The translations under genes and the position numbers were made by a program. Below, one piece after another: positions 1 through 6,932 of a stretch of 10,239 bases of DNA. The stretch lies in contig JBGSNL010000046.1 of the NCBI GenBank assembly GCA_041739675.1, forward strand, positions 1 to 10,239, written 5' to 3'. The notes beneath the pieces were generated by a model. The model made no database searches, had not been told where the DNA came from, and was given only the letters and a program-made list of their open reading frames with translations. Source of the stretch: a bacterium. Its GTDB lineage: Bacteria; UBA10199; 2-02-FULL-44-16; DYJF01. How positions within the stretch are numbered: the stretch's first letter is position 1; every line of letters begins with the position of its first letter.

Positions 1-127
1 GGCAGTGGGGTCATGGGTACGGCGTCGTTTTTGGGTTACGGCCCAAAAACGCACCTCGTCTCTCGGCGATTGCGGCATCATAACCATGGATGCAATCGCC
101 TCCGAGACGCCCCATGACCCCACAGCC
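1..127. repeat. Three-way-junction palindromic element (REP/MITE-like), probably truncated at the window start
   Basis: GTGGGGTCATGGG (5-17) pairs with CCCATGACCCCAC (111-123). Internal hairpin CGTTTTTGGG (26-35)/CCCAAAAACG (42-51). Second arm CGTCTC..GGCGATTGC (57-73)/GCAATCGCC..GAGACG (92-109). Confidence 0.7.
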
Positions 128-162
128 CCTACGCCTCCGAGTTTTGCACAATTGATGAGACA

Positions 163-384
163 GGGTGGCCGAATTCTCGTAGGGAAGCAGGGTATGAGAG
201 CATAAAGCGCCGGTTACGACCGCAGGCGTATGAGGAGCGAAAATGTTGACTGGTCTTGTGAGTTAAGGGCTGACAGCGGCAAGACACTTAACTCACATAA
301 GACCAGCAATATTTTCGCGACGAGTAGCCGGAGGGAGTGGCGCAGCTCTGATACCCTGCTTCCCGAAAGAGAATTTGGCCATCT
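163..384 (+). repeat. ~220-nt nested inverted repeat forming a rod-like hairpin (MITE/REPIN-like element or structured ncRNA)
   Basis: Outer arms 163-201 and 345-384 (GGGAAGCAGGGTAT/ATACCCTGCTTCCC core). Middle helix CCGGTTAC (210-217)/GTAGCCGG (324-331). Inner arms 237-267 and 287-318. Confidence 0.75.
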
Positions 385-394
385 TTCGATTTAT

Positions 395-1096
395 TTATTC
401 AAGTAATGTGAGTAGACGTTTTGAAATTTCGAGTCCGATGCGGCGTCCTTGAGATGTGAGTCTTAAGAGTTCCGCTTTGGTGAGCGGGTTGACCGAACCC
501 ATCGAGCCCACAAGATATGCCACGTGCGCAATGTATTCCAGCTGCTCCAATCTGTTGAACGTATCCTCAAGATCTTTTCCCAGGACAAGAACTCCGTGGC
601 GCATGAGCAGAAACGCGTTGTGGTCGGCAAGATAAGGTTTCAAAGCCTCGGGGAGTTCGTTGGTGCCCGGCGTGGCGTATGGAACTGTTGGGACCGGCCC
701 TATGTAGATGGCAAGCTCGGGAAGAAGCATTTCGGTGAGCGAGATCGAAGCGAGAGAGCATGCCGTGCAATAGGGGGGGTGTGCGTGGATCGCTGCGTGG
801 ACGTCGGCCCGATGCCTGTAAACCTCAAGATGCATCGCGATTTCGGTGGACGGTCGGGGGACAGTTCCCTCCGGAGCGACAGTGTTTGCATGGCAAGGGG
901 AACTGTCCCCCGACATGTTGCACTCGACGATCAGTCCCGCTTCCATCTTGTCTTTTCTCGTCGCGCGGGGTGTGATGAGAAGGTGATTTTCGCTCCTCAC
1001 GGAAACGTTTCCACTTGTGGCAACAAGATAACCGCGGTCATAGAGCTTCCTGCAAACTTCGGCTATCGCAGTCTTTTCTTGGTCAATATGCTTCAT
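395..1096 (-). CDS. Class II aldolase/adducin family protein (FucA/MtnB-like metalloenzyme)
   Basis: 233 aa. Phosphate-binding ATSGNVS, PSTE..MH (FucA-like Glu), metal ligands HAH and LLMRHG. ATGA overlap with the upstream gene at 1093-1096. Confidence 0.9.
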   Translation of the reverse strand: MKHIDQEKTAIAEVCRKLYDRGYLVATSGNVSVRSENHLLITPRATRKDKMEAGLIVECNMSGDSSPCHANTVAPEGTVPRPSTEIAMHLEVYRHRADVHAAIHAHPPYCTACSLASISLTEMLLPELAIYIGPVPTVPYATPGTNELPEALKPYLADHNAFLLMRHGVLVLGKDLEDTFNRLEQLEYIAHVAYLVGSMGSVNPLTKAELLRLTSQGRRIGLEISKRLLTLLE

Positions 1097-2109
1097 ACCT
1101 CTTCAATCAACTCCTCTTGCCGCCATGCCTTCTTCCTGTTGTGCGTTCCAAGGAATATGAGTCCGGTGACGATCCACACTGCGGCGCGGATCCTCTTTGA
1201 TATCTGGATCGTGATCCCTATTGCGGGATCGAGATGCAGAAGATAAAGGACGCCGCTGTACGCACCTTCCATAACGCCCAGCGCCCCCGGGACAAACGTG
1301 AACACCGCGTTGATGACGGGCGTCATGGCGCACAAAACGATGGATGCGAAGAGCGTGAACTCGTCAGAGACGCATCTCCCGATTGCGTAAATTTCGACTA
1401 TTCCCAGGAGCCTTCCGGCCGTGTGGCACCCCAAGGCGATCCAGAAACCCTTGTGGTCCGCCGTGTAGAAGTCGATCATGTGGCTGTCCAACTCCTCGAA
1501 GCGGGCGATTGTTTTTTCGGAAAACTCCTTTTTGATCCCAAGCCTTTTGCTGAGCGTCATCAGAAGCGAGAAAAATCCCTTGCGTTGATGTATGAGAACG
1601 AACGTCATAAACAGGGCCGCGATTATCGTAACGATCGGCACGCCGTATCTCAAGTTTGAAGGGAGGCGTCTGAAGCCGATGAAAGCGACTGTGATCCCGA
1701 AGATGATGACGATGAGTGTTGCGGCGCTGTGAAGTGTCCGATCCACCACGACGGAGGCCGCACCTTCCGTCGTCGCGAAATTCTTCTTGAGAAGATGGAT
1801 GCGCAGGGGATCGCCGCCCAGAAAGTTCGCCGGTGTCAGCGTGTTAACCGCCTCGCCCGCGATCTTGATGCGGAAGAGTTCCCAGAAGCCGATGCCGTTT
1901 CCTACGCGCGACAGAAATTGTCTCCACGCCTCGGTGTACAGCGTATACCAGACAAGCCCTATCGCGAAGATCGGGACGAGCCTCCATCCCAGCGCCCTGA
2001 TGTTTTCAAGGATGGGCGCAACTCCGATTTTGCGGATGAGTACGATGAAAAGAACCGCGCCCACGAGAAGGAAGAGTGTGCGCAACTTTTTTGCCAATGC
2101 CTTTGTCAT
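1093..2109 (-). CDS. LPG_synthase_TM / UPF0104 flippase-like integral membrane protein
   Basis: 338 aa with many hydrophobic segments. Family motifs GEAVNTLTPANFLGGDPLRIHLL, SVVVDR and FVPGALGVMEG. Confidence 0.88.
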   Translation of the reverse strand: MTKALAKKLRTLFLLVGAVLFIVLIRKIGVAPILENIRALGWRLVPIFAIGLVWYTLYTEAWRQFLSRVGNGIGFWELFRIKIAGEAVNTLTPANFLGGDPLRIHLLKKNFATTEGAASVVVDRTLHSAATLIVIIFGITVAFIGFRRLPSNLRYGVPIVTIIAALFMTFVLIHQRKGFFSLLMTLSKRLGIKKEFSEKTIARFEELDSHMIDFYTADHKGFWIALGCHTAGRLLGIVEIYAIGRCVSDEFTLFASIVLCAMTPVINAVFTFVPGALGVMEGAYSGVLYLLHLDPAIGITIQISKRIRAAVWIVTGLIFLGTHNRKKAWRQEELIEEV

Positions 2110-2828
2110 TTTAAAAATTCCTCATTGTTTGCAAGTTTCACCTCTGCGATTTTCAGATCCTCTGGAGTGTCCACCTCCAGCCAGCCCACGCCCGACGCAT
2201 CGCAGATATCGATCTTGGAGCCGTTGGCGGCCAAATGGCCCAGGACCCATTCCACCGGGCAGCTGTCCCCGTATATTTTTCTCGTCTCCCGGATCGCGTC
2301 TATATATTTTGAAAGATGCGTTTTCCTGCATGAAGTCATGCCGATGTATCCGCCGTCGAAATCCGTGAGTGTTTTCATTATGCGCACGAGGTTCCTGTTT
2401 TGATCCAGCTTGACCTTCATGTCGTCATGGACGAGCCTTCTGTCGAAATCGCACACGGCGCTGATGCCGCGGACGCCGTTTAAAATTATCGGTAGCATTC
2501 TTTTGGGGTAGATGTGGTCGACGTTCATGAGCAGAAAATCGTCGTCCAGGAATTCTATCGCAGTCTCGAGCGTCCTTATCGAGCCGTCTTTATAATCAGG
2601 GTTGAAAAAAATTTTTGCGTCCGGGGCGTGTCGCCCGACGAAATCTTTGAGGTTGTCTGCCATGTAACCTGTCACGACCGCCTTTGCGGTGATTTCCGGA
2701 TGATCCAGAAAGTCAAACACGCGCAATATCAGTTCGCGCTCGGCAACGGGCACCATGGCCTTGGGGCGGCTCAAAGTGAGATCACCCAGGCGGTTGCCAA
2801 GCCCTGCCGACAGAATAAGTGCCTTCAT
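2106..2828 (-). CDS. Nucleotidyltransferase, IPCT/LicC-like phospho-alcohol cytidylyltransferase
   Basis: MKALILSAGLGNRLGDLTLSRPKAM glycine-rich signature, FLLMNVDHIY and WLEVDTPEDL. The ATG at 2828 overlaps the HAD stop (TGATG) and is preferred over the TTG at 2831. Confidence 0.88.
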   Translation of the reverse strand: MKALILSAGLGNRLGDLTLSRPKAMVPVAERELILRVFDFLDHPEITAKAVVTGYMADNLKDFVGRHAPDAKIFFNPDYKDGSIRTLETAIEFLDDDFLLMNVDHIYPKRMLPIILNGVRGISAVCDFDRRLVHDDMKVKLDQNRNLVRIMKTLTDFDGGYIGMTSCRKTHLSKYIDAIRETRKIYGDSCPVEWVLGHLAANGSKIDICDASGVGWLEVDTPEDLKIAEVKLANNEEFLK

Positions 2829-3466
2829 CAAAACTTCCTTTTCAGATCGGACAGATTTTTTATCACGTCCGATTTCGGAAAATGTTTTTTGAATTCATGA
2901 CGCCCGAAAGTTCCCTCTTTGCCTATGAAGTCGATGCCGAAATCAGCCGCGCGCTCGCCATCCTTGATAGAGTCGCCGACGAACGTAACGTCGTCGTGGT
3001 CGCAGTCAAGCTCGCGCATGATGTGCGCGAAGTGGTCGGCACCTTTCGCGAAGTTGGGGCGAAAGCCCAGAACCATGTCGAAGGCGATGCCCGTCTGCCC
3101 CACAAAACGGTCCACCAGTTCCTGAAAATTGTTGGAAGAGACGCAGACCTTGATGCCTTTTTTCCTCAAGGTTTCAAGCGTCTCGGCGGCATCCTCGTAA
3201 AGGGGTTTTTCAAAATAGTTTTCGAGCTTTTTCTTCTCGAACTCGTCGGCAGCCTTTTTGTTTGCCGGATTTCCGGGAAAGATCACCTCAAGCTGCTGGA
3301 AGAAGGGGAGCCCCGAAGTTTCAAGGTAGCGGCGCCTCGCGGTCTCGCTGTCTATCGGAAAATACTTCGGCATCACTTCCGCTGCGACGTCGGCGAAGGC
3401 TTCCATCGAGTTGACGATCGTGCCGTCGAAATCGAATACCAGAACTTTTTTCGCGGGTTTTGTCAT
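2828..3466 (-). CDS. HAD-superfamily hydrolase (phosphatase, Gph-like C1 cap)
   Basis: Motif I VFDFDGTI, motif II VSSN, motif III Lys (FAKG) and motif IV FVGDSIKD. ATGA overlap at 3463-3466. Confidence 0.92.
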   Translation of the reverse strand: MTKPAKKVLVFDFDGTIVNSMEAFADVAAEVMPKYFPIDSETARRRYLETSGLPFFQQLEVIFPGNPANKKAADEFEKKKLENYFEKPLYEDAAETLETLRKKGIKVCVSSNNFQELVDRFVGQTGIAFDMVLGFRPNFAKGADHFAHIMRELDCDHDDVTFVGDSIKDGERAADFGIDFIGKEGTFGRHEFKKHFPKSDVIKNLSDLKRKF

Positions 3467-4809
3467 GCTGTCTGCCCCTCAGTGTCTTCAACTGCCGTGT
3501 TTTGCGTTTCTCTTTTCGTAGCCAGGGATTGCACGCCCAGATAAGTCAGAATTACCGCTGCCAGCGTCGTTCCGAATGCCGCGATGAAGAGCCACCAGTA
3601 AAGAACGCCGAAGACGGCAAAGACAAGGAACATGAACGAAAAGACGTCTTTCTTGAGCGTGTATTTTCCGTACTTGATGAACCCCAAGAGCCAGCGCGGC
3701 TGATTTTTAAGTTTTTGCAGATATTCCTTGTCGAACGTGACGAGGCTCGCCGAATTGGTGTTCTGTTTCAGATATCTTATCATCCAGAAGAAAGTGATAG
3801 CCGTCGTTGCCAGGAGCAAGGCGCCAGTGATGAATGCCACGTGCGAATGAGTGTGCCGCCAGTACCCGGCGATAAGCCCGGTGAAGAAACTTCCCAGCGA
3901 AAGATTGTCGCTCACCGAATCTATATACTGGCCGAACTTGCTGCAGCGGAACGTGAGCTTTGCGACCTCGCCGTCACAGCCGTCGACTACCGACGCGATC
4001 TGGAAGAGCACGGCGCCCAGAAGGATGACATCGTATCTGTGGCCGTCCGCAGCAAAGACGCCCGAAAAAAGGCCGATCACGATGTTGAACGCGGTGATCC
4101 CGTTGGGGCTGATCCAGAGCCTCGACAAAATTATGCTGATCGGGAGCGATATCCGCTTGTTTATATATCTTGCGATGGGGCCGGCGGTCGAGAGCCTGAT
4201 CGATTCGGCCAGAAACTTTTCGGCGACGATTCTCTCGCGCGGTCTCCGCACCAGGAATGTGTTCGATGCGGCCGGTTTTTGAACGACGCGCAGATCGGAC
4301 TGCTCGGATAAGAATTTGATGCAACTCTCTATGGAACGCGGTTTCACCGTCGTGAATTCCACAAGGCTCGCAAAAGAAGTTCTCGTGAGCTTCATGATCG
4401 GCACCTGGTGCGAACCCTCGTGACAGACCAAAAGCTCCGAGCCGCGCACCGAAAATGATTTGATCGTTTCGATCACTGCGCTGTCGAAGATCAGATTCGC
4501 ATTGATGAGCAACGTGTCGTGATTCGTATTTCCTGCGACTTCAGCGACGATGTCAGGGCTCACGCGGTACGGTTCGTCGTACGATACGATCCTTATATCC
4601 GGCAGCCGTCTCTCATGATATCTCTCGAGGAACCTTTCGATTTTTTCGCGCTGCGTATTGGCGATGAGAAGCGTGACGCTTTCGATGCCGGAGGAGGCAA
4701 GCGTCATGATGCCGCGGACGATCAAAGGTACCCCGGCGAGCTTCATCGTGGAGACGACCATCGCCTCGGGCGTGTCCGAAGGGACGTATAAAATCGCTTC
4801 GCTCTTCAT
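3463..4809 (-). CDS. CDP-alcohol phosphotransferase (DIPPS-like) with an N-terminal degenerate nucleotidyltransferase-like domain
   Basis: CDP-AP signature DGCDGEVAK...GQYIDSVSD, preceded by DIPPS-like GPIARYINKRISLPIS...SPNGIT. The ~200-aa soluble N-terminus (AILY...LAGVPLIVRGIMTLASSGIESVTLL) resembles an NTP-transferase fold but lacks the GxGxRL/PK motif. Confidence 0.88.
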   Translation of the reverse strand: MKSEAILYVPSDTPEAMVVSTMKLAGVPLIVRGIMTLASSGIESVTLLIANTQREKIERFLERYHERRLPDIRIVSYDEPYRVSPDIVAEVAGNTNHDTLLINANLIFDSAVIETIKSFSVRGSELLVCHEGSHQVPIMKLTRTSFASLVEFTTVKPRSIESCIKFLSEQSDLRVVQKPAASNTFLVRRPRERIVAEKFLAESIRLSTAGPIARYINKRISLPISIILSRLWISPNGITAFNIVIGLFSGVFAADGHRYDVILLGAVLFQIASVVDGCDGEVAKLTFRCSKFGQYIDSVSDNLSLGSFFTGLIAGYWRHTHSHVAFITGALLLATTAITFFWMIRYLKQNTNSASLVTFDKEYLQKLKNQPRWLLGFIKYGKYTLKKDVFSFMFLVFAVFGVLYWWLFIAAFGTTLAAVILTYLGVQSLATKRETQNTAVEDTEGQTA

Positions 4810-4864
4810 TTGAATCGAGCCTACCTATCAGGAAAGTGCCCGTACTGTAAAGGGAATTCGTGCG

Positions 4865-4894
4865 TTGACGGTATGCATGTGTTTGTGCTAGTCG
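4865..4894 (+). promoter_or_regulatory. Putative sigma70 promoter for the radical SAM gene
   Basis: TTGACG (4865-4870), 18-bp spacer, TGc-TAGTCG extended -10-like element. GAGGG lies before the ATG at 4906. Confidence 0.35.
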
Positions 4895-4905
4895 AGGGCA
4901 CTTAA

Positions 4906-5868
4906 ATGGGTAAAATCGTCCACAAGAAGCCCGGCTGGTTGCGGGGGTTTTATTACTTTTTGAGATGCAAGGCACGGGGGAACGTGCCGCTCATAAACCT
5001 TGAATTCACAAAGCGTTGCAACGCGAAGTGCTCCTTTTGCCAGTACTGGCAGCTTGAATCCCCGAATGAATTGGAGGACTACGGCCCGGTCATAAAGCGT
5101 TTCCGGCCGGTGATCGTCTCTATCTCCGGCGGCGAGCCGCTCACGCGTAAGAATTATCCTGACCTCATAAAGAGCATCAGGCCGCATACCCACTACATTT
5201 CGCTCATCACCAATGGCGCGCTATTAAATGAAGAGTCCGCGAAAAAGCTGGTGGATGCGGGCGTCGACCATATCTCGGTCTCGCTGGACTATTTGAGCAA
5301 CATGCATGACGAGGCGCGAAAGATAGAAGGGCTTTTTGATCATCTTTCCCGCACGATACCTGATCTTGCGGCCAGAGGTTACAGGCTTTCGCTCAACACG
5401 ATCATCATGGAATCGAATCTGGATCAGATATTGCCCATTGCATACCGCGCAAAGGAGTGGGGTGTGTCGGTTTCATACTCCGCGTACTGCACGCTGAAAA
5501 TCGACGACGACGACCAGATGATAAGGCAGAAAAGGTTGAAGCAGTTGGGCGAGATCGTTGCGGAACTCGTGCGTTTGAAAAGGACGTTAAGGAACATAAG
5601 GAACTCTGATTTCTACCTTGAGAGAATTCCGGATTATTTTAAAAATGGCATGGTGCGTCAATGCAGGGCGGGCTCGCGCTGGTTGCATGTAACGCCCGAC
5701 GGCTTCATCCAGCCATGCTCGGAGCTCCCGAGAATCTGCCATTATGCTGATTTTAAAAGGGAATTGACGAAAAGTCCGGCCTGCGCAAAGTGCTGGTACA
5801 CCTGTCGCGGCGAGGCGGAGGCCCCGCTGCTTAAACCCAGGCGGTTCCTGGAGTTCATCAGATCGTAG
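4906..5868 (+). CDS. Radical SAM enzyme with a C-terminal SPASM/twitch-like Fe-S domain
   Basis: CxxxCxxC (CNAKCSFC), SGGEPL, ITNG and VSLD motifs. C-terminal CRAG...VTPDGFIQPC...C...CAKCWYTC. Confidence 0.92.
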   Translation: MGKIVHKKPGWLRGFYYFLRCKARGNVPLINLEFTKRCNAKCSFCQYWQLESPNELEDYGPVIKRFRPVIVSISGGEPLTRKNYPDLIKSIRPHTHYISLITNGALLNEESAKKLVDAGVDHISVSLDYLSNMHDEARKIEGLFDHLSRTIPDLAARGYRLSLNTIIMESNLDQILPIAYRAKEWGVSVSYSAYCTLKIDDDDQMIRQKRLKQLGEIVAELVRLKRTLRNIRNSDFYLERIPDYFKNGMVRQCRAGSRWLHVTPDGFIQPCSELPRICHYADFKRELTKSPACAKCWYTCRGEAEAPLLKPRRFLEFIRS

Positions 5869-5881
5869 CTATAATTTTTAC

Positions 5882-5910
5882 TTGCATAGAAAAAATTTTA
5901 CGCGTATAAG
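5882..5910 (+). promoter_or_regulatory. Putative sigma70 promoter
   Basis: TTGCAT (5882-5887), 17-bp spacer, TATAAG (5905-5910) in an AT-rich intergenic region. Confidence 0.55.
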
Positions 5911-5974
5911 CCCCAACCAATCACGAGGAAACCAAACATTTGCCCCCTTTAAAGGGGGAGAGGAGGGGAGACAG

Positions 5975-6169
5975 ATGAAGAGATTGATAGGAGTAGCAGT
6001 AGCAGTAGCGTTGTGCGGTTTCGTGTTCGGCTGCCAGAAAAAGGCAGGTCCGGAAGCCGAGAAGGGCATGGAAGCAAAGCCGGCACCGATGGCAGCCCCA
6101 GCAGTTCCGCCGCCACCGCCGCCGCCACCGCCGCCAGCACCGGCACCTGAGCAGGGCGGAGGGCAGTAA
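5975..6169 (+). CDS. Small proline-rich lipoprotein (64 aa)
   Basis: AGGAGG SD at 5961-5966 and ATG at 5975. MKRLIGVAVAVALCGFVFG-C lipoprotein-type signal, then an Ala/Pro-rich tail with 10 consecutive Pro. Confidence 0.75.
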   Translation: MKRLIGVAVAVALCGFVFGCQKKAGPEAEKGMEAKPAPMAAPAVPPPPPPPPPPAPAPEQGGGQ

Positions 6170-6268
6170 AAATTTTGAAAGCAAGGCACCCGCGCAATAG
6201 TGTGCGGGAGGCCAGTTATTAAATTGAATCCATCCCAAATAGCTTGAGGGATGGAAGGAGGAAGAAGT

Positions 6269-6700
6269 ATGAAGAAGTTGTTACTGGTAGCGTTGTTCGT
6301 TGCGGTTCCGGCGCTCGTACTCGCGCAGGCGAATCCATCGACGACAGCCCCGGCTAAGACCGAGGTGAAGAAGATCGAGTCGACAACGACGTCAACGACC
6401 ACGACGCCGGCGAAGACCCCGGAAGCTGCAAGGGCAGCGACCACGACGAAGACCACCGAGACCGTGAAGACGGCCACCACAACGACGACCACGCCGGAAA
6501 TGGTTCTCATCGGTGAGATCACGAACGTTGACAACGCGAACAAGAGCTTCACGTTGAAGGTGAAGGAAACCAATAAGGAAGAGAAAATCTCCTTCAAGGA
6601 AACCAACCCGAACCTTAAGCACGGCCTGAAGATCAAAGCAGTCTATGAAAAAGATGCTTCCGGCAAGTATTGGCTCAAGAGATACGAAGAGACCAAGTAA
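6269..6700 (+). CDS. Secreted hypothetical protein: Thr-rich linker plus small beta-rich (possibly OB-fold-like) C-terminal domain
   Basis: AGGAGG SD at 6256-6261. Sec signal MKKLLLVALFVAVPALVLA-Q, Thr-rich low-complexity region, C-terminal GEITNVDNANKSFTLKV...LKHGLKIKAVY. Confidence 0.8.
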   Translation: MKKLLLVALFVAVPALVLAQANPSTTAPAKTEVKKIESTTTSTTTTPAKTPEAARAATTTKTTETVKTATTTTTTPEMVLIGEITNVDNANKSFTLKVKETNKEEKISFKETNPNLKHGLKIKAVYEKDASGKYWLKRYEETK

Positions 6701-6716
6701 TCGGGAAAATTAATCG

Positions 6717-6756
6717 AAACAAAAACCCGCCAAGATTTTGGCGGGTTTTTTGTTTT
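6717..6756. terminator. Bidirectional rho-independent terminator
   Basis: AAAAACCCGCCAA-GATT-TTGGCGGGTTTTT (6721-6750) with A and T tracts on both sides, between converging transcription units. Confidence 0.88.
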
Positions 6757-6757
6757 G

Positions 6758-6829
6758 AGCCGGCAAACGGATTTGAACCGTTGACCTGCCGATTACGAAT
6801 CGGCTGCTCTACCGCTGAGCTATGCCGGC
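6758..6829 (-). tRNA. trnT: tRNA-Thr(CGT), CCA not encoded
   Basis: Minus strand reads GCCGGCATAGCTCAGCGGTAGAGCAGCCGATTCGTAATCGGCAGGTCAACGGTTCAAATCCGTTTGCCGGCT. Anticodon arm GCCGA-TTCGTAA-TCGGC; T-loop GTTCAAATC. Confidence 0.96.
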
Positions 6830-6847
6830 GGTATAATATTGTCAATG

Positions 6848-6932
6848 TGCCGGAGGAGGGAGTCGAACCCTCACGGGCCGTAAGGCCCGGCAGATTTTGA
6901 GTCTGCTACGTCTGCCATTCCGTCACTCCGGC
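6848..6932 (-). tRNA. trnL: tRNA-Leu(CAA), CCA not encoded
   Basis: Minus strand reads GCCGGAGTGACGGAATGGCAGACGTAGCAGACTCAAAATCTGCCGGGCCTTACGGCCCGTGAGGGTTCGACTCCCTCCTCCGGCA. Anticodon arm GCAGA-CTCAAAA-TCTGC; long variable arm. Confidence 0.96.

Follow-up and report, generated by a model that had tools for sequence, protein, structure and literature searches.

A conserved radical SAM enzyme beside a predicted CDP-inositol lipid operon may modify the inositol head group

Introduction

Which lipid is made by a bacterial operon that combines a cytidine diphosphate (CDP)-alcohol phosphotransferase (CDP-AP) with a nucleotidyltransferase (NTase), a HAD-family phosphatase, a flippase-like membrane protein and a class II aldolase, and what is the task of a radical S-adenosylmethionine (SAM) enzyme that is encoded next to it? 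This question is raised by a stretch of 10,239 nucleotides, hereafter the window, which represents the entire contig C7 (JBGSNL010000046.1) of the bacterial assembly G000 (GCA_041739675.1, GTDB lineage UBA10199; genome completeness 94.6%). An earlier note on this DNA had proposed that a membrane lipid is assembled here via a CDP-polyol and then flipped, and that its head group might not be myo-inositol. We here arrive at a different head group. The four-gene core of CDP-AP, HAD, NTase and flippase, together with inositol-phosphate synthase (MIPS), matches the known, still unconfirmed CDP-inositol route of the Bacteroidetes type, to which the radical SAM enzyme is an addition. The locus would thus yield a phospholipid made by a CDP-inositol route, the inositol head of which is modified by the conserved radical SAM partner, a scheme that, taken as a whole, we regard as evenly poised between right and wrong. 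It rests on genes, motifs, folds, conservation and co-occurrence, and all enzyme activities are predicted.

Results

Scans against Pfam and NCBIfam uphold the family assignments of the six open reading frames (ORFs) of the locus at their claimed positions:

395-1096, minus strand: class II aldolase, 233 aa, PF00596
1093-2109, minus strand: LPG_synthase_TM flippase-like membrane protein, 338 aa, PF03706
2106-2828, minus strand: NTase, 240 aa, PF12804/PF00483 (alternative TTG start possible 3 nt upstream)
2828-3466, minus strand: HAD-family phosphatase, 212 aa, PF13419/PF00702
3463-4809, minus strand: CDP-AP, 448 aa, PF01066
4810-4905: divergent intergenic gap, 96 bp, presumed shared promoter region
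4906-5868, plus strand: radical SAM enzyme, no characterised function, 320 aa, PF04055

The five minus-strand genes are joined by overlaps (ATGA at 3463-3466, TGATG at 2828, ATGA at 2106-2109 and at 1093-1096), and the radical SAM gene begins 96 bp away on the opposite strand, all of which confirms the layout described in the earlier note. No sigma-70 consensus site was scored in the gap at 4810-4905, and promoter and terminator scans returned counts at chance level. The order CDP-AP, HAD, NTase, flippase is kept in 18 of 20 same-order loci of relatives, the two exceptions (L047, L050) being interrupted where ORF calls overlap or where the contig stops. The gene order of the operon is not due to chance.

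The CDP-AP carries the class I CDP-alcohol phosphotransferase signature in its membrane domain (D276-x2-D279-G280-x2-A-K284...G293-x3-D297-x3-D301), i.e. D276, D279, G280, A283, G293, D297 and D301 are in place, with K284 instead of R as in many homologues. Its top PDB sequence matches are AF2299 (7.9e-16) and the Archaeoglobus fulgidus enzyme AfIPCT/DIPPS (2.6e-13), and the AlphaFold 2 (AF2) model (pLDDT 86.9) matches the folds of both IPCT/DIPPS (4mnd) and AF2299 over the full length. The N-terminal domain (approximately residues 1-200) is cytidylyltransferase-like and aligns with the active domain of fused homologues; it lacks their nucleotide-binding loop and WxDVDT motif and is probably inactive. 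Against the NCBIfam IPCT/DIPPS model (NF041135) we obtained 96.6 and 82.1 bits at a cut-off of 580, a value which split proteins cannot easily reach because the model was built for the bifunctional Thermococcales protein.

The NTase finds its best PDB match in AfIPCT (2xme, 2e-12), followed by PntC (3.6e-8) and LicC (1.2e-7), and has G9, G11, R13, K23, D104, K152, W216 and D220 as invariant residues; on these grounds it is predicted to be a CTP:inositol-1-phosphate cytidylyltransferase. The HAD protein shows the motifs DFDGT at 12 and GDSIKD at 164. HAD enzymes can serve as phosphatidate phosphatases of the lipin type, and a PAP2 gene holds a similar position in locus L115. The HAD gene accompanies the split NTase with the motif 'DDMKV' and is fused to the CDP-AP in one relative (G026). 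Within the class to which this organism belongs, the split set (NTase, HAD and CDP-AP) and a fused IPCT/CDP-AP occupy the same position beside the same radical SAM and flippase genes, which suggests that both versions do the same job. The flippase-like protein scores over the cut-off of TIGR00374, and its best named family is HpnL (116 bits, cut-off 195.65); HpnL is the LPG_synthase_TM-type gene that accompanies genes for the radical SAM enzyme HpnJ. Fusions of NTase with flippase occur in two genomes and of CDP-AP with HAD in one (L057:424-2136, L062:6912-8588, L063:4395-6359). The CDP-polyol route to a flipped membrane lipid that had been claimed for the locus thus stands, with likenesses in sequence, fold or gene content to IPCT/DIPPS, to BEPIS and to the Bacteroidetes cluster, and we hold with good confidence that the product is a lipid and not a solute.

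Is the head group then inositol? Neither the window nor assembly G000 yielded a MIPS gene in a family search and by tblastn, and the observation that the operon holds no inositol-3-phosphate synthase is hence correct. The gene is present in 53 of 60 relatives, including all three of the same family, and adjoins the operon in 16 of the 60 (15 of the 40 loci first examined, and G009 on a wider view), where it lies on one contig with the operon and at most about 9 kb from its end. It is found there just beyond the flippase or aldolase gene, from which a conserved small ORF and in many cases a LysR gene separate it. The small ORF (L043:1592-1951, with homologues in 18 of 40 loci) encodes a protein of 105-125 aa that has no Pfam or NCBIfam match and moves along with MIPS on relocation. 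The contig studied here ends on this very side, 394 bp beyond the aldolase gene and inside repeats:

about 1-146: intergenic repeat, multi-copy in G000
149-381: intergenic repeat, multi-copy in G000, imperfect inverted repeat

In blastn searches the repeats of window positions 1-381 match more than 20 other contigs, several of them at contig ends, and sequencing depth in run X1 rises 4-7-fold across positions 1-400. These multi-copy repeats at the contig start are the probable reason why the assembly breaks off on the flank that holds MIPS in relatives. In G001, a member of the same genus, the contig with the aldolase and the contig with the small ORF and MIPS each terminate in a copy of a single repeat, the two copies being nearly identical. 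Run X1 matches window positions 319-6000 with zero differing letters at a depth of 9.79, and also contains a contig of 1,177 nt at a depth of 9.9 that is colinear with the MIPS region of G001 in two blocks of about 80 and about 83% identity. This contig and one from run X3, which holds a relative about 95% identical to the window, have listed differences in common. In the four runs aligned to the window the repeat was not bridged, and the MIPS contig of X1 was not physically joined to the window. The genes 3' of MIPS in G001 lie mid-contig on C58 of G000, behind other genes. A true loss of MIPS was considered from this placement and from the absence in G000, and was judged unlikely given the X1 contig. 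The MIPS gene of this organism is thus likely unbinned and its absence an assembly gap. Of the two genes whose genomic search had been proposed, ino1 (MIPS) and the serine palmitoyltransferase (SPT) gene, neither was found in G000, but a contig that aligns to the former is in run X1. With MIPS conserved in relatives and very probably present in this organism, the earlier argument from a missing MIPS to a head group other than myo-inositol falls, and we consider an inositol-derived head group very probable.

The radical SAM protein contains the cysteines C38, C42 and C45 as well as C253, C271, C293, C296 and C300, which are invariant in 29 sequences. The arrangement C253-x12-G266-x4-C271 followed by C293/C296/C300 agrees with the auxiliary-cluster pattern Cx(9-15)Gx4C of SPASM/Twitch proteins. 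The SPASM model PF13186 gave no match at E<=0.01 in this protein, and among the 25 best NCBIfam families listed none exceeded its cut-off (PTO1314, 83 of 306 bits; HpnH, 65 of 225 bits). From end to end the family is similar to HpnH (hhalign 98%; Atlas rows), and the true HpnH of G000 lies on C82. In its AF2 model (pLDDT 88.6) the fold matches BlsE (Z 24.1), SkfB (Z 23.0) and also MoaA. Twitch-type sugar enzymes carry out oxidation, epimerisation and diol dehydration, and these are the likely outcomes of the reaction here as well. The N-terminal helix is basic and aromatic. Its net charge lies between +2 and +5 in 28 of 29 sequences, and its hydrophobic moment is 0.27-0.76 (no control set), a hint that it may touch the membrane.

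The link between this enzyme and the lipid genes, which the earlier note had drawn from their vicinity, was borne out by conservation. Of 60 relatives, 41 have an orthologue (at least 41% identity) and one more has a fragment; the orthologue lies within 6 kb of the CDP-AP gene in 37 of the 59 relatives having a CDP-AP orthologue. At that position 13 other relatives have a distant radical SAM gene (21-28% identical), and both kinds never occur together. By alignment or HMM these 13 replacements comprise a second clade in seven genomes and a third kind in two, the remaining four being recognised by the position of a weak match only; orthologue and replacing enzymes have the C-terminal cysteine pattern in common. 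The second clade (21-25% identical) replaces the window type in three families (L070:6647-7621, L071, L073, L074, L326, L327).

The family is large and unassigned: when 8,000 candidates were scored, at least 1,879 clusters matched at E<=1e-40. We viewed the best 80 of 272 radical SAM loci, approximately 30 of which stem from the class itself. CDP-AP genes are seen in 37 of them, NTase in 32, flippase in 26, MIPS in 14 and aldolase in 10, and outside the class the locus titles name Dadabacteria, Desulfobacteraceae, Myxococcales, Methylomirabilota, Aminicenantia, Calditrichaeota, Zixiibacteriota, Ignavibacteria, Latescibacterota, Gemmatimonadaceae, Acidobacteriota and Nitrospinota. Other recurrent neighbours have to do with membrane lipids, namely alkaline-phosphatase-type phosphodiesterase, acyltransferase, VTT/DedA, MMPL, MlaC and hopanoid genes. 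In L111, L118, L120 and L129 the radical SAM gene is co-oriented with IPCT/CDP-AP genes at near or full overlap, the Methylomirabilota locus L136 shows a run of MIPS, IPCT/CDP-AP and radical SAM, and in P0010 the radical SAM enzyme is fused to an IPCT-like domain. P0045, a member of a sister clade, is fused to a VTT/DedA domain. In L125, L130, L128, L133 and L137, where CDP-AP is missing from the surroundings, a pair of phosphodiesterase and radical SAM genes is followed either by aldolase and acyltransferase genes or by a gene of the LPG_synthase_TM type. We consider it quite probable that the radical SAM enzyme belongs to the same pathway as the lipid genes.

Co-occurrence also bears on its substrate. 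MIPS is encoded in 49 of 55 further carrier genomes (40/46 and 9/9; a small number of these genomes may be members of the class), and squalene-hopene cyclase (SHC) in 25 of the 55, one by a weak match; a dependence of the radical SAM enzyme on hopanoids was rejected on the latter count. In an even sample of 251 genomes of another phylum, MIPS is present in 10 of 10 carriers as against 157 of 251 genomes overall (naive p of about 0.01; kin are non-independent). Of the 46 carriers, 11 have no IPCT/CDP-AP match, and some of these have MIPS beside a gene of the type encoding phosphatidylinositol-phosphate synthase (PIPS) (L213, L214, L216), which points to inositol or its lipid, and not CDP-inositol, as the shared substrate. 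As inositol is the one feature common to carriers whether they use the CDP-inositol or the PIPS route and whether or not they have hopanoids, its ring is the simplest common substrate, and we slightly favour the view that the radical SAM enzyme acts on inositol. The membrane-type partner genes favour the finished lipid as the form in which the ring is met.

With regard to the lipid acceptor, the stretch KKDVF of the CDP-AP aligns with KRDER of AfDIPPS (a weak second HMMER stretch), and the PIPS arginine motifs SYxRAR and QRPER are absent (NF045883, 41.2 bits, cut-off 170). Conserved arginines act in the recognition of the inositol-phosphate acceptor in PIPS-type enzymes, according to the part of the study considered here (PMC4634129). 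Their absence is a hint at an acceptor other than inositol phosphate. A PIPS-type gene with both arginine motifs lies elsewhere in G000 (C42:20771-23278), and likewise in 19 of 20 relatives checked. Taken together, a CDP-AP without PIPS motifs and a true PIPS-type gene elsewhere suggest that the acceptor is probably a neutral lipid alcohol and that the cell has two inositol routes. Diacylglycerol would be the simplest acceptor, possibly replaced by an ether lipid or a hopanoid polyol. A sphingolipid acceptor was rejected, as no SPT was found in G000 at its completeness of 94.6%: the best candidate reaches 395 bits (SPT cut-off 640), is Kbl by score (529 bits, over the Kbl cut-off) and lies beside a threonine dehydrogenase-like gene.

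Hopanoid genes of G000 comprise SHC, HpnH, an HpnG-like gene, an aminotransferase and an MMPL gene (C83:5697-7703, C82:57215-59223, C6:50497-54705), and SHC occurs in 58 of the 61 genomes of the group. G000 also encodes a Tes/Mss-type tetraether/membrane-spanning lipid synthase (C71:5774-7666, L249; 522 bits, Tes cut-off 450), and a Tes-like gene (30-36% identical) directly adjoins the PIPS-type gene in 7 of 20 relatives (L265-L269, L271, L275); these genes suggest that the class may make membrane-spanning lipids. At C42:19954-23278 (L251:4955-8279) the PIPS-type CDP-AP and a type I phosphodiesterase domain form one fusion protein of 836 aa, and a further divergent radical SAM gene lies ahead of it. 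This fusion recurs in 8 of 20 relatives, and the radical SAM gene stands beside it in 2 of 20.

The aldolase has the class II metal-binding and catalytic set N30, E85, H104, H106 and H167. Close orthologues are confined to G001, to family f3 (in each of its 13 genomes) and, as a fragment, to G003; more distant ones occur in G026 and G004. No class II aldolase was found in 34 of 61 genomes, including G002 of the same family and all members of families f4 and f6, which keep the other five genes and MIPS; most of the 34 retain the lipid genes. Thus, the enzyme cannot build an essential head group and is a lineage-restricted accessory, and the claim that it takes the place of MIPS in a head-group pathway fails on conservation. 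It is the sole class II family member in G000, where MtnA (on C58) and MtnP (on C60) both score over cut-off. A phosphorylase (MtnP), an isomerase (MtnA) and a class II aldolase constitute a 5'-deoxyadenosine salvage route in the sections of the study considered (PMC6079011). In this light the enzyme could, with about equal chances either way, cleave 5-deoxyribulose-1-phosphate and thereby salvage the 5'-deoxyadenosine of the radical enzyme; a lineage-specific tailoring role may also apply. MtnA presence was dropped as a test of the salvage idea, being near-universal (57/61) without tracking the aldolase. A general tie between aldolase and flippase was dropped as well: the aldolase of G004 lies beside another flippase gene, on the opposite strand.

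On the far side of the radical SAM gene, past 5868, the window further encodes rpoZ, a histidine kinase and gspC, of which the latter two reappear in relatives solely as chromosomal neighbours. The remaining features are:

5974-6169: small proline-rich lipoprotein-like ORF
6251-6700: threonine-rich ORF, secreted-type
6721-6750: terminator-like hairpin, bidirectional
6757-6932: tRNA-Thr(cgt) and tRNA-Leu(caa)

Discussion

Several known systems resemble the locus in part. Those sections of Heaver et al. (2022, PMC9246714) that were considered describe a set of NTP transferase, CDP-AP, HAD and LPG-synthase genes near MIPS in Bacteroides vulgatus and Prevotella veroralis, both of which make phosphoinositol dihydroceramide (PI-DHC), the function of the cluster being unconfirmed; a CDP-AP-HAD fusion is common to P. 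veroralis and G026. These sections describe no radical SAM or aldolase gene, and the product there is PI-DHC, whereas no SPT was found in G000. The MIPS-IPCT-BEPIS route of Rhodothermus marinus (Jorge et al. 2015, as cited in the part of PMC4587543 considered) likewise uses CDP-inositol as donor to a lipid alcohol and, compared by description, clusters MIPS, IPCT and CDP-AP much as the 16 relatives with MIPS on the operon contig do; HAD, the flippase-like gene and radical SAM are added at the present locus. The A. fulgidus proteins IPCT/DIPPS (4mnd, 2xme) and AF2299 (4o6m) are similar in two-domain architecture, CDP-AP signature and as top fold matches, AF2299 even in its inactive-looking cytidylyltransferase-like N-domain, but differ by a structural identity of only 16-19%, by the altered acceptor-site motif at our locus and by making soluble solutes.

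For the radical step, HpnJ and the calditol synthase Cds offer precedents in that radical chemistry takes place on the sugar or polyol head of a membrane lipid, as laid out in the portion of a review considered here (PMC13459092). The window protein differs from both: it is a 320-aa SPASM/Twitch-type, HpnH/PTO1314-like protein with no B12-binding-type domain, and its proposed substrate is inositol. In its section headings this review, whose subject is the modification of lipids by radical SAM enzymes as known up to 2025, covers Tes, Mss, Gms, Grs, Gmm, Cds, HpnH, HpnJ, HpnP/R, Jaw5 and ladderanes, with no section on inositol lipids. The aldolase finds its parallel in DrdA of the DHAP-shunt (Beaudoin et al. 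2018, PMC6079011, in the sections considered), where, as in G000, a sole class II aldolase in the genome goes with methylthioadenosine (MTA) phosphorylase and methylthioribose-1-phosphate (MTR-1-P) isomerase; unlike there, the window aldolase is unclustered with phosphorylase or isomerase genes, and it is no more similar to DrdA (6btd, 1.2e-18) than to FucA.

A number of observations weigh against a radical tailoring of an inositol lipid. Lipid genes without any radical SAM gene found within 6 kb occur in 9 of 59 relatives, of which four lie at contig edges and five (G033, G036, G037, G052, G053) are not so explained. CDP-AP is in view at only 37 of the best 80 of 272 loci, with none in the Dadabacteria-type, Gemmatimonadaceae, Acidobacteriota and Nitrospinota loci among these, and many carriers have no lipid-synthesis neighbour. 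The MIPS background in the phylum sampled with 251 genomes is high (63%), and of the nine new loci from that sample, which lie by MMPL, VTT or HpnH-like genes, none has CDP-AP beside it and five are beside HpnH-like genes. Nor do the fold matches give the chemistry, because identity is low (18-19%) and the sugar-nucleoside enzyme BlsE scores almost the same as SkfB, a peptide maturase; the cyclitol radical SAM enzymes BtrN (Z 12.6) and SpeY (Z 11.3) score far lower. The substrate of the NTase is less secure because, in a quick unrooted tree with no outgroup, its class-specific 'DDMKV' clade (36 rows) is separate from the clade of IPCT-like 'DATKV' domains. A second route to plain phosphatidylinositol (PI) would be redundant beside the separate PIPS-type gene of G000 and 19 of 20 relatives. 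Finally, the aldolase gene sits in the lipid operon and not with mtnA or mtnP.

Some of these points would be accommodated if the operon made an ordinary phosphoinositol lipid by the BEPIS or Bacteroidetes route and the radical SAM enzyme worked on a hopanoid side chain or on the lipid core, sharing only the neighbourhood. Homologues do reside in hopanoid/MMPL clusters without CDP-AP (thermophilic-type loci L231-L236 and L238, HpnH/HpnA by sequence resemblance) and beside SHC or HpnH in L114, L115 and L136; the HpnH-like character of the family, the spread of SHC in the group and the relatives that keep the lipid genes without radical SAM nearby fit as well. The further carriers, however, possess SHC far less often than MIPS, and both the IPCT fusion in P0010 and the fact that a second radical SAM clade can take the enzyme's place at this locus agree with a role in the inositol pathway, which renders this explanation unlikely in our view. 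A different acceptor would account for the redundancy instead: phosphoinositol could be placed on an alcohol that cannot be CDP-activated, such as a hopanoid polyol or an ether or membrane-spanning lipid, hence a second route beside PIP synthase. G000 encodes PIPS-type, SHC, HpnH, HpnG-like and Tes/Mss proteins, its flippase is closest to HpnL among named families, IPCT/CDP-AP genes stand within hopanoid clusters in L114, L115 and L136, and the acceptor of BEPIS is a dialkyl glycerol ether in the part of PMC4587543 considered. Yet the operon of the window and of 40 class loci does not adjoin hopanoid or Tes genes, Dadabacteria-type genomes have related CDP-APs and no SHC, and no phosphoinositol-hopanoid or ether lipid of such kind was found in the literature searched. 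Quite unlikely as we hold it to be, this idea changes nothing but the acceptor and leaves room for radical tailoring.

Two further explanations change the product itself. The nearest solved structures, IPCT/DIPPS and AF2299, use soluble acceptors, synthesis of the solute di-myo-inositol-phosphate (DIP) needs a phosphatase as well as IPCT and DIPPS, for which the HAD could be the DIPP phosphatase, and run X1, which holds the window, is a hot-spring metagenome. A DIP pathway is nevertheless very unlikely, given NCBIfam IPCT/DIPPS scores far under the cut-off, the change of KRDER to KKDVF or (K/R)RDFF, the translational coupling of the flippase-like gene and the origin of close relatives from wetland and sediment runs. 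In the version of the earlier note, aldolase and radical SAM would build a non-inositol polyol phosphate for activation by the NTase. The translational coupling of the aldolase to the operon in this genus and family f3 (13/13), its place after the flippase in G026 and, in another phylum, directly after radical SAM in L125 and L130, with phosphodiesterase and acyltransferase, would suit this idea, as would the divergence of the NTase. Against it stand the 34 of 61 genomes that manage without a class II aldolase and the MIPS gene conserved next door in relatives and likely present in this organism, and we regard it as highly improbable.

Returning to the modified inositol lipid, the pathway could proceed as follows. 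MIPS, absent from the assembly though very likely encoded in the organism, would make inositol-1-phosphate, from which the NTase, judging from homology and context, would form CDP-inositol. The CDP-AP would transfer phosphoinositol to a lipid alcohol, most simply diacylglycerol, and the HAD protein may free this alcohol from its phosphorylated lipid or take off a terminal phosphate, which is the weakest of the core steps. The radical SAM enzyme would then abstract a hydrogen from a carbon of inositol, most likely once the lipid is complete and at the membrane. The cyclitol would thereby become oxidised, epimerised or dehydrated, and the LPG_synthase_TM protein would flip the lipid. In a side step the aldolase may clear the by-product 5'-deoxyadenosine via cleavage of 5-deoxyribulose-1-phosphate.

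Conclusions

In our searches, in which subscription journals were thinly covered, we found no paper that joins radical SAM enzymes with inositol-lipid or CDP-alcohol gene clusters. Tentatively, and with somewhat more doubt than belief, we extend the proposal to the family at large: it may remodel the inositol ring to a non-myo cyclitol (keto, epimerised, deoxy or ring-contracted). An inositol lipid would then for the first time be seen to undergo radical tailoring. This chemistry would occur in many phyla of uncultured bacteria, would have arisen or been exchanged at least twice within the class, and may there be carried on a hopanoid or membrane-spanning core. Should the radical SAM enzyme not act on the head group, the locus would be a new member of a known pathway type. 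It also offers a small expressible gene set with which the alternative route of the Bacteroidetes could be tested as well. If the proposal is true, it would add a third case of radical head-group remodelling to HpnJ and calditol synthase, and ions of 'PI' mass in environmental lipidomes may be other cyclitols.

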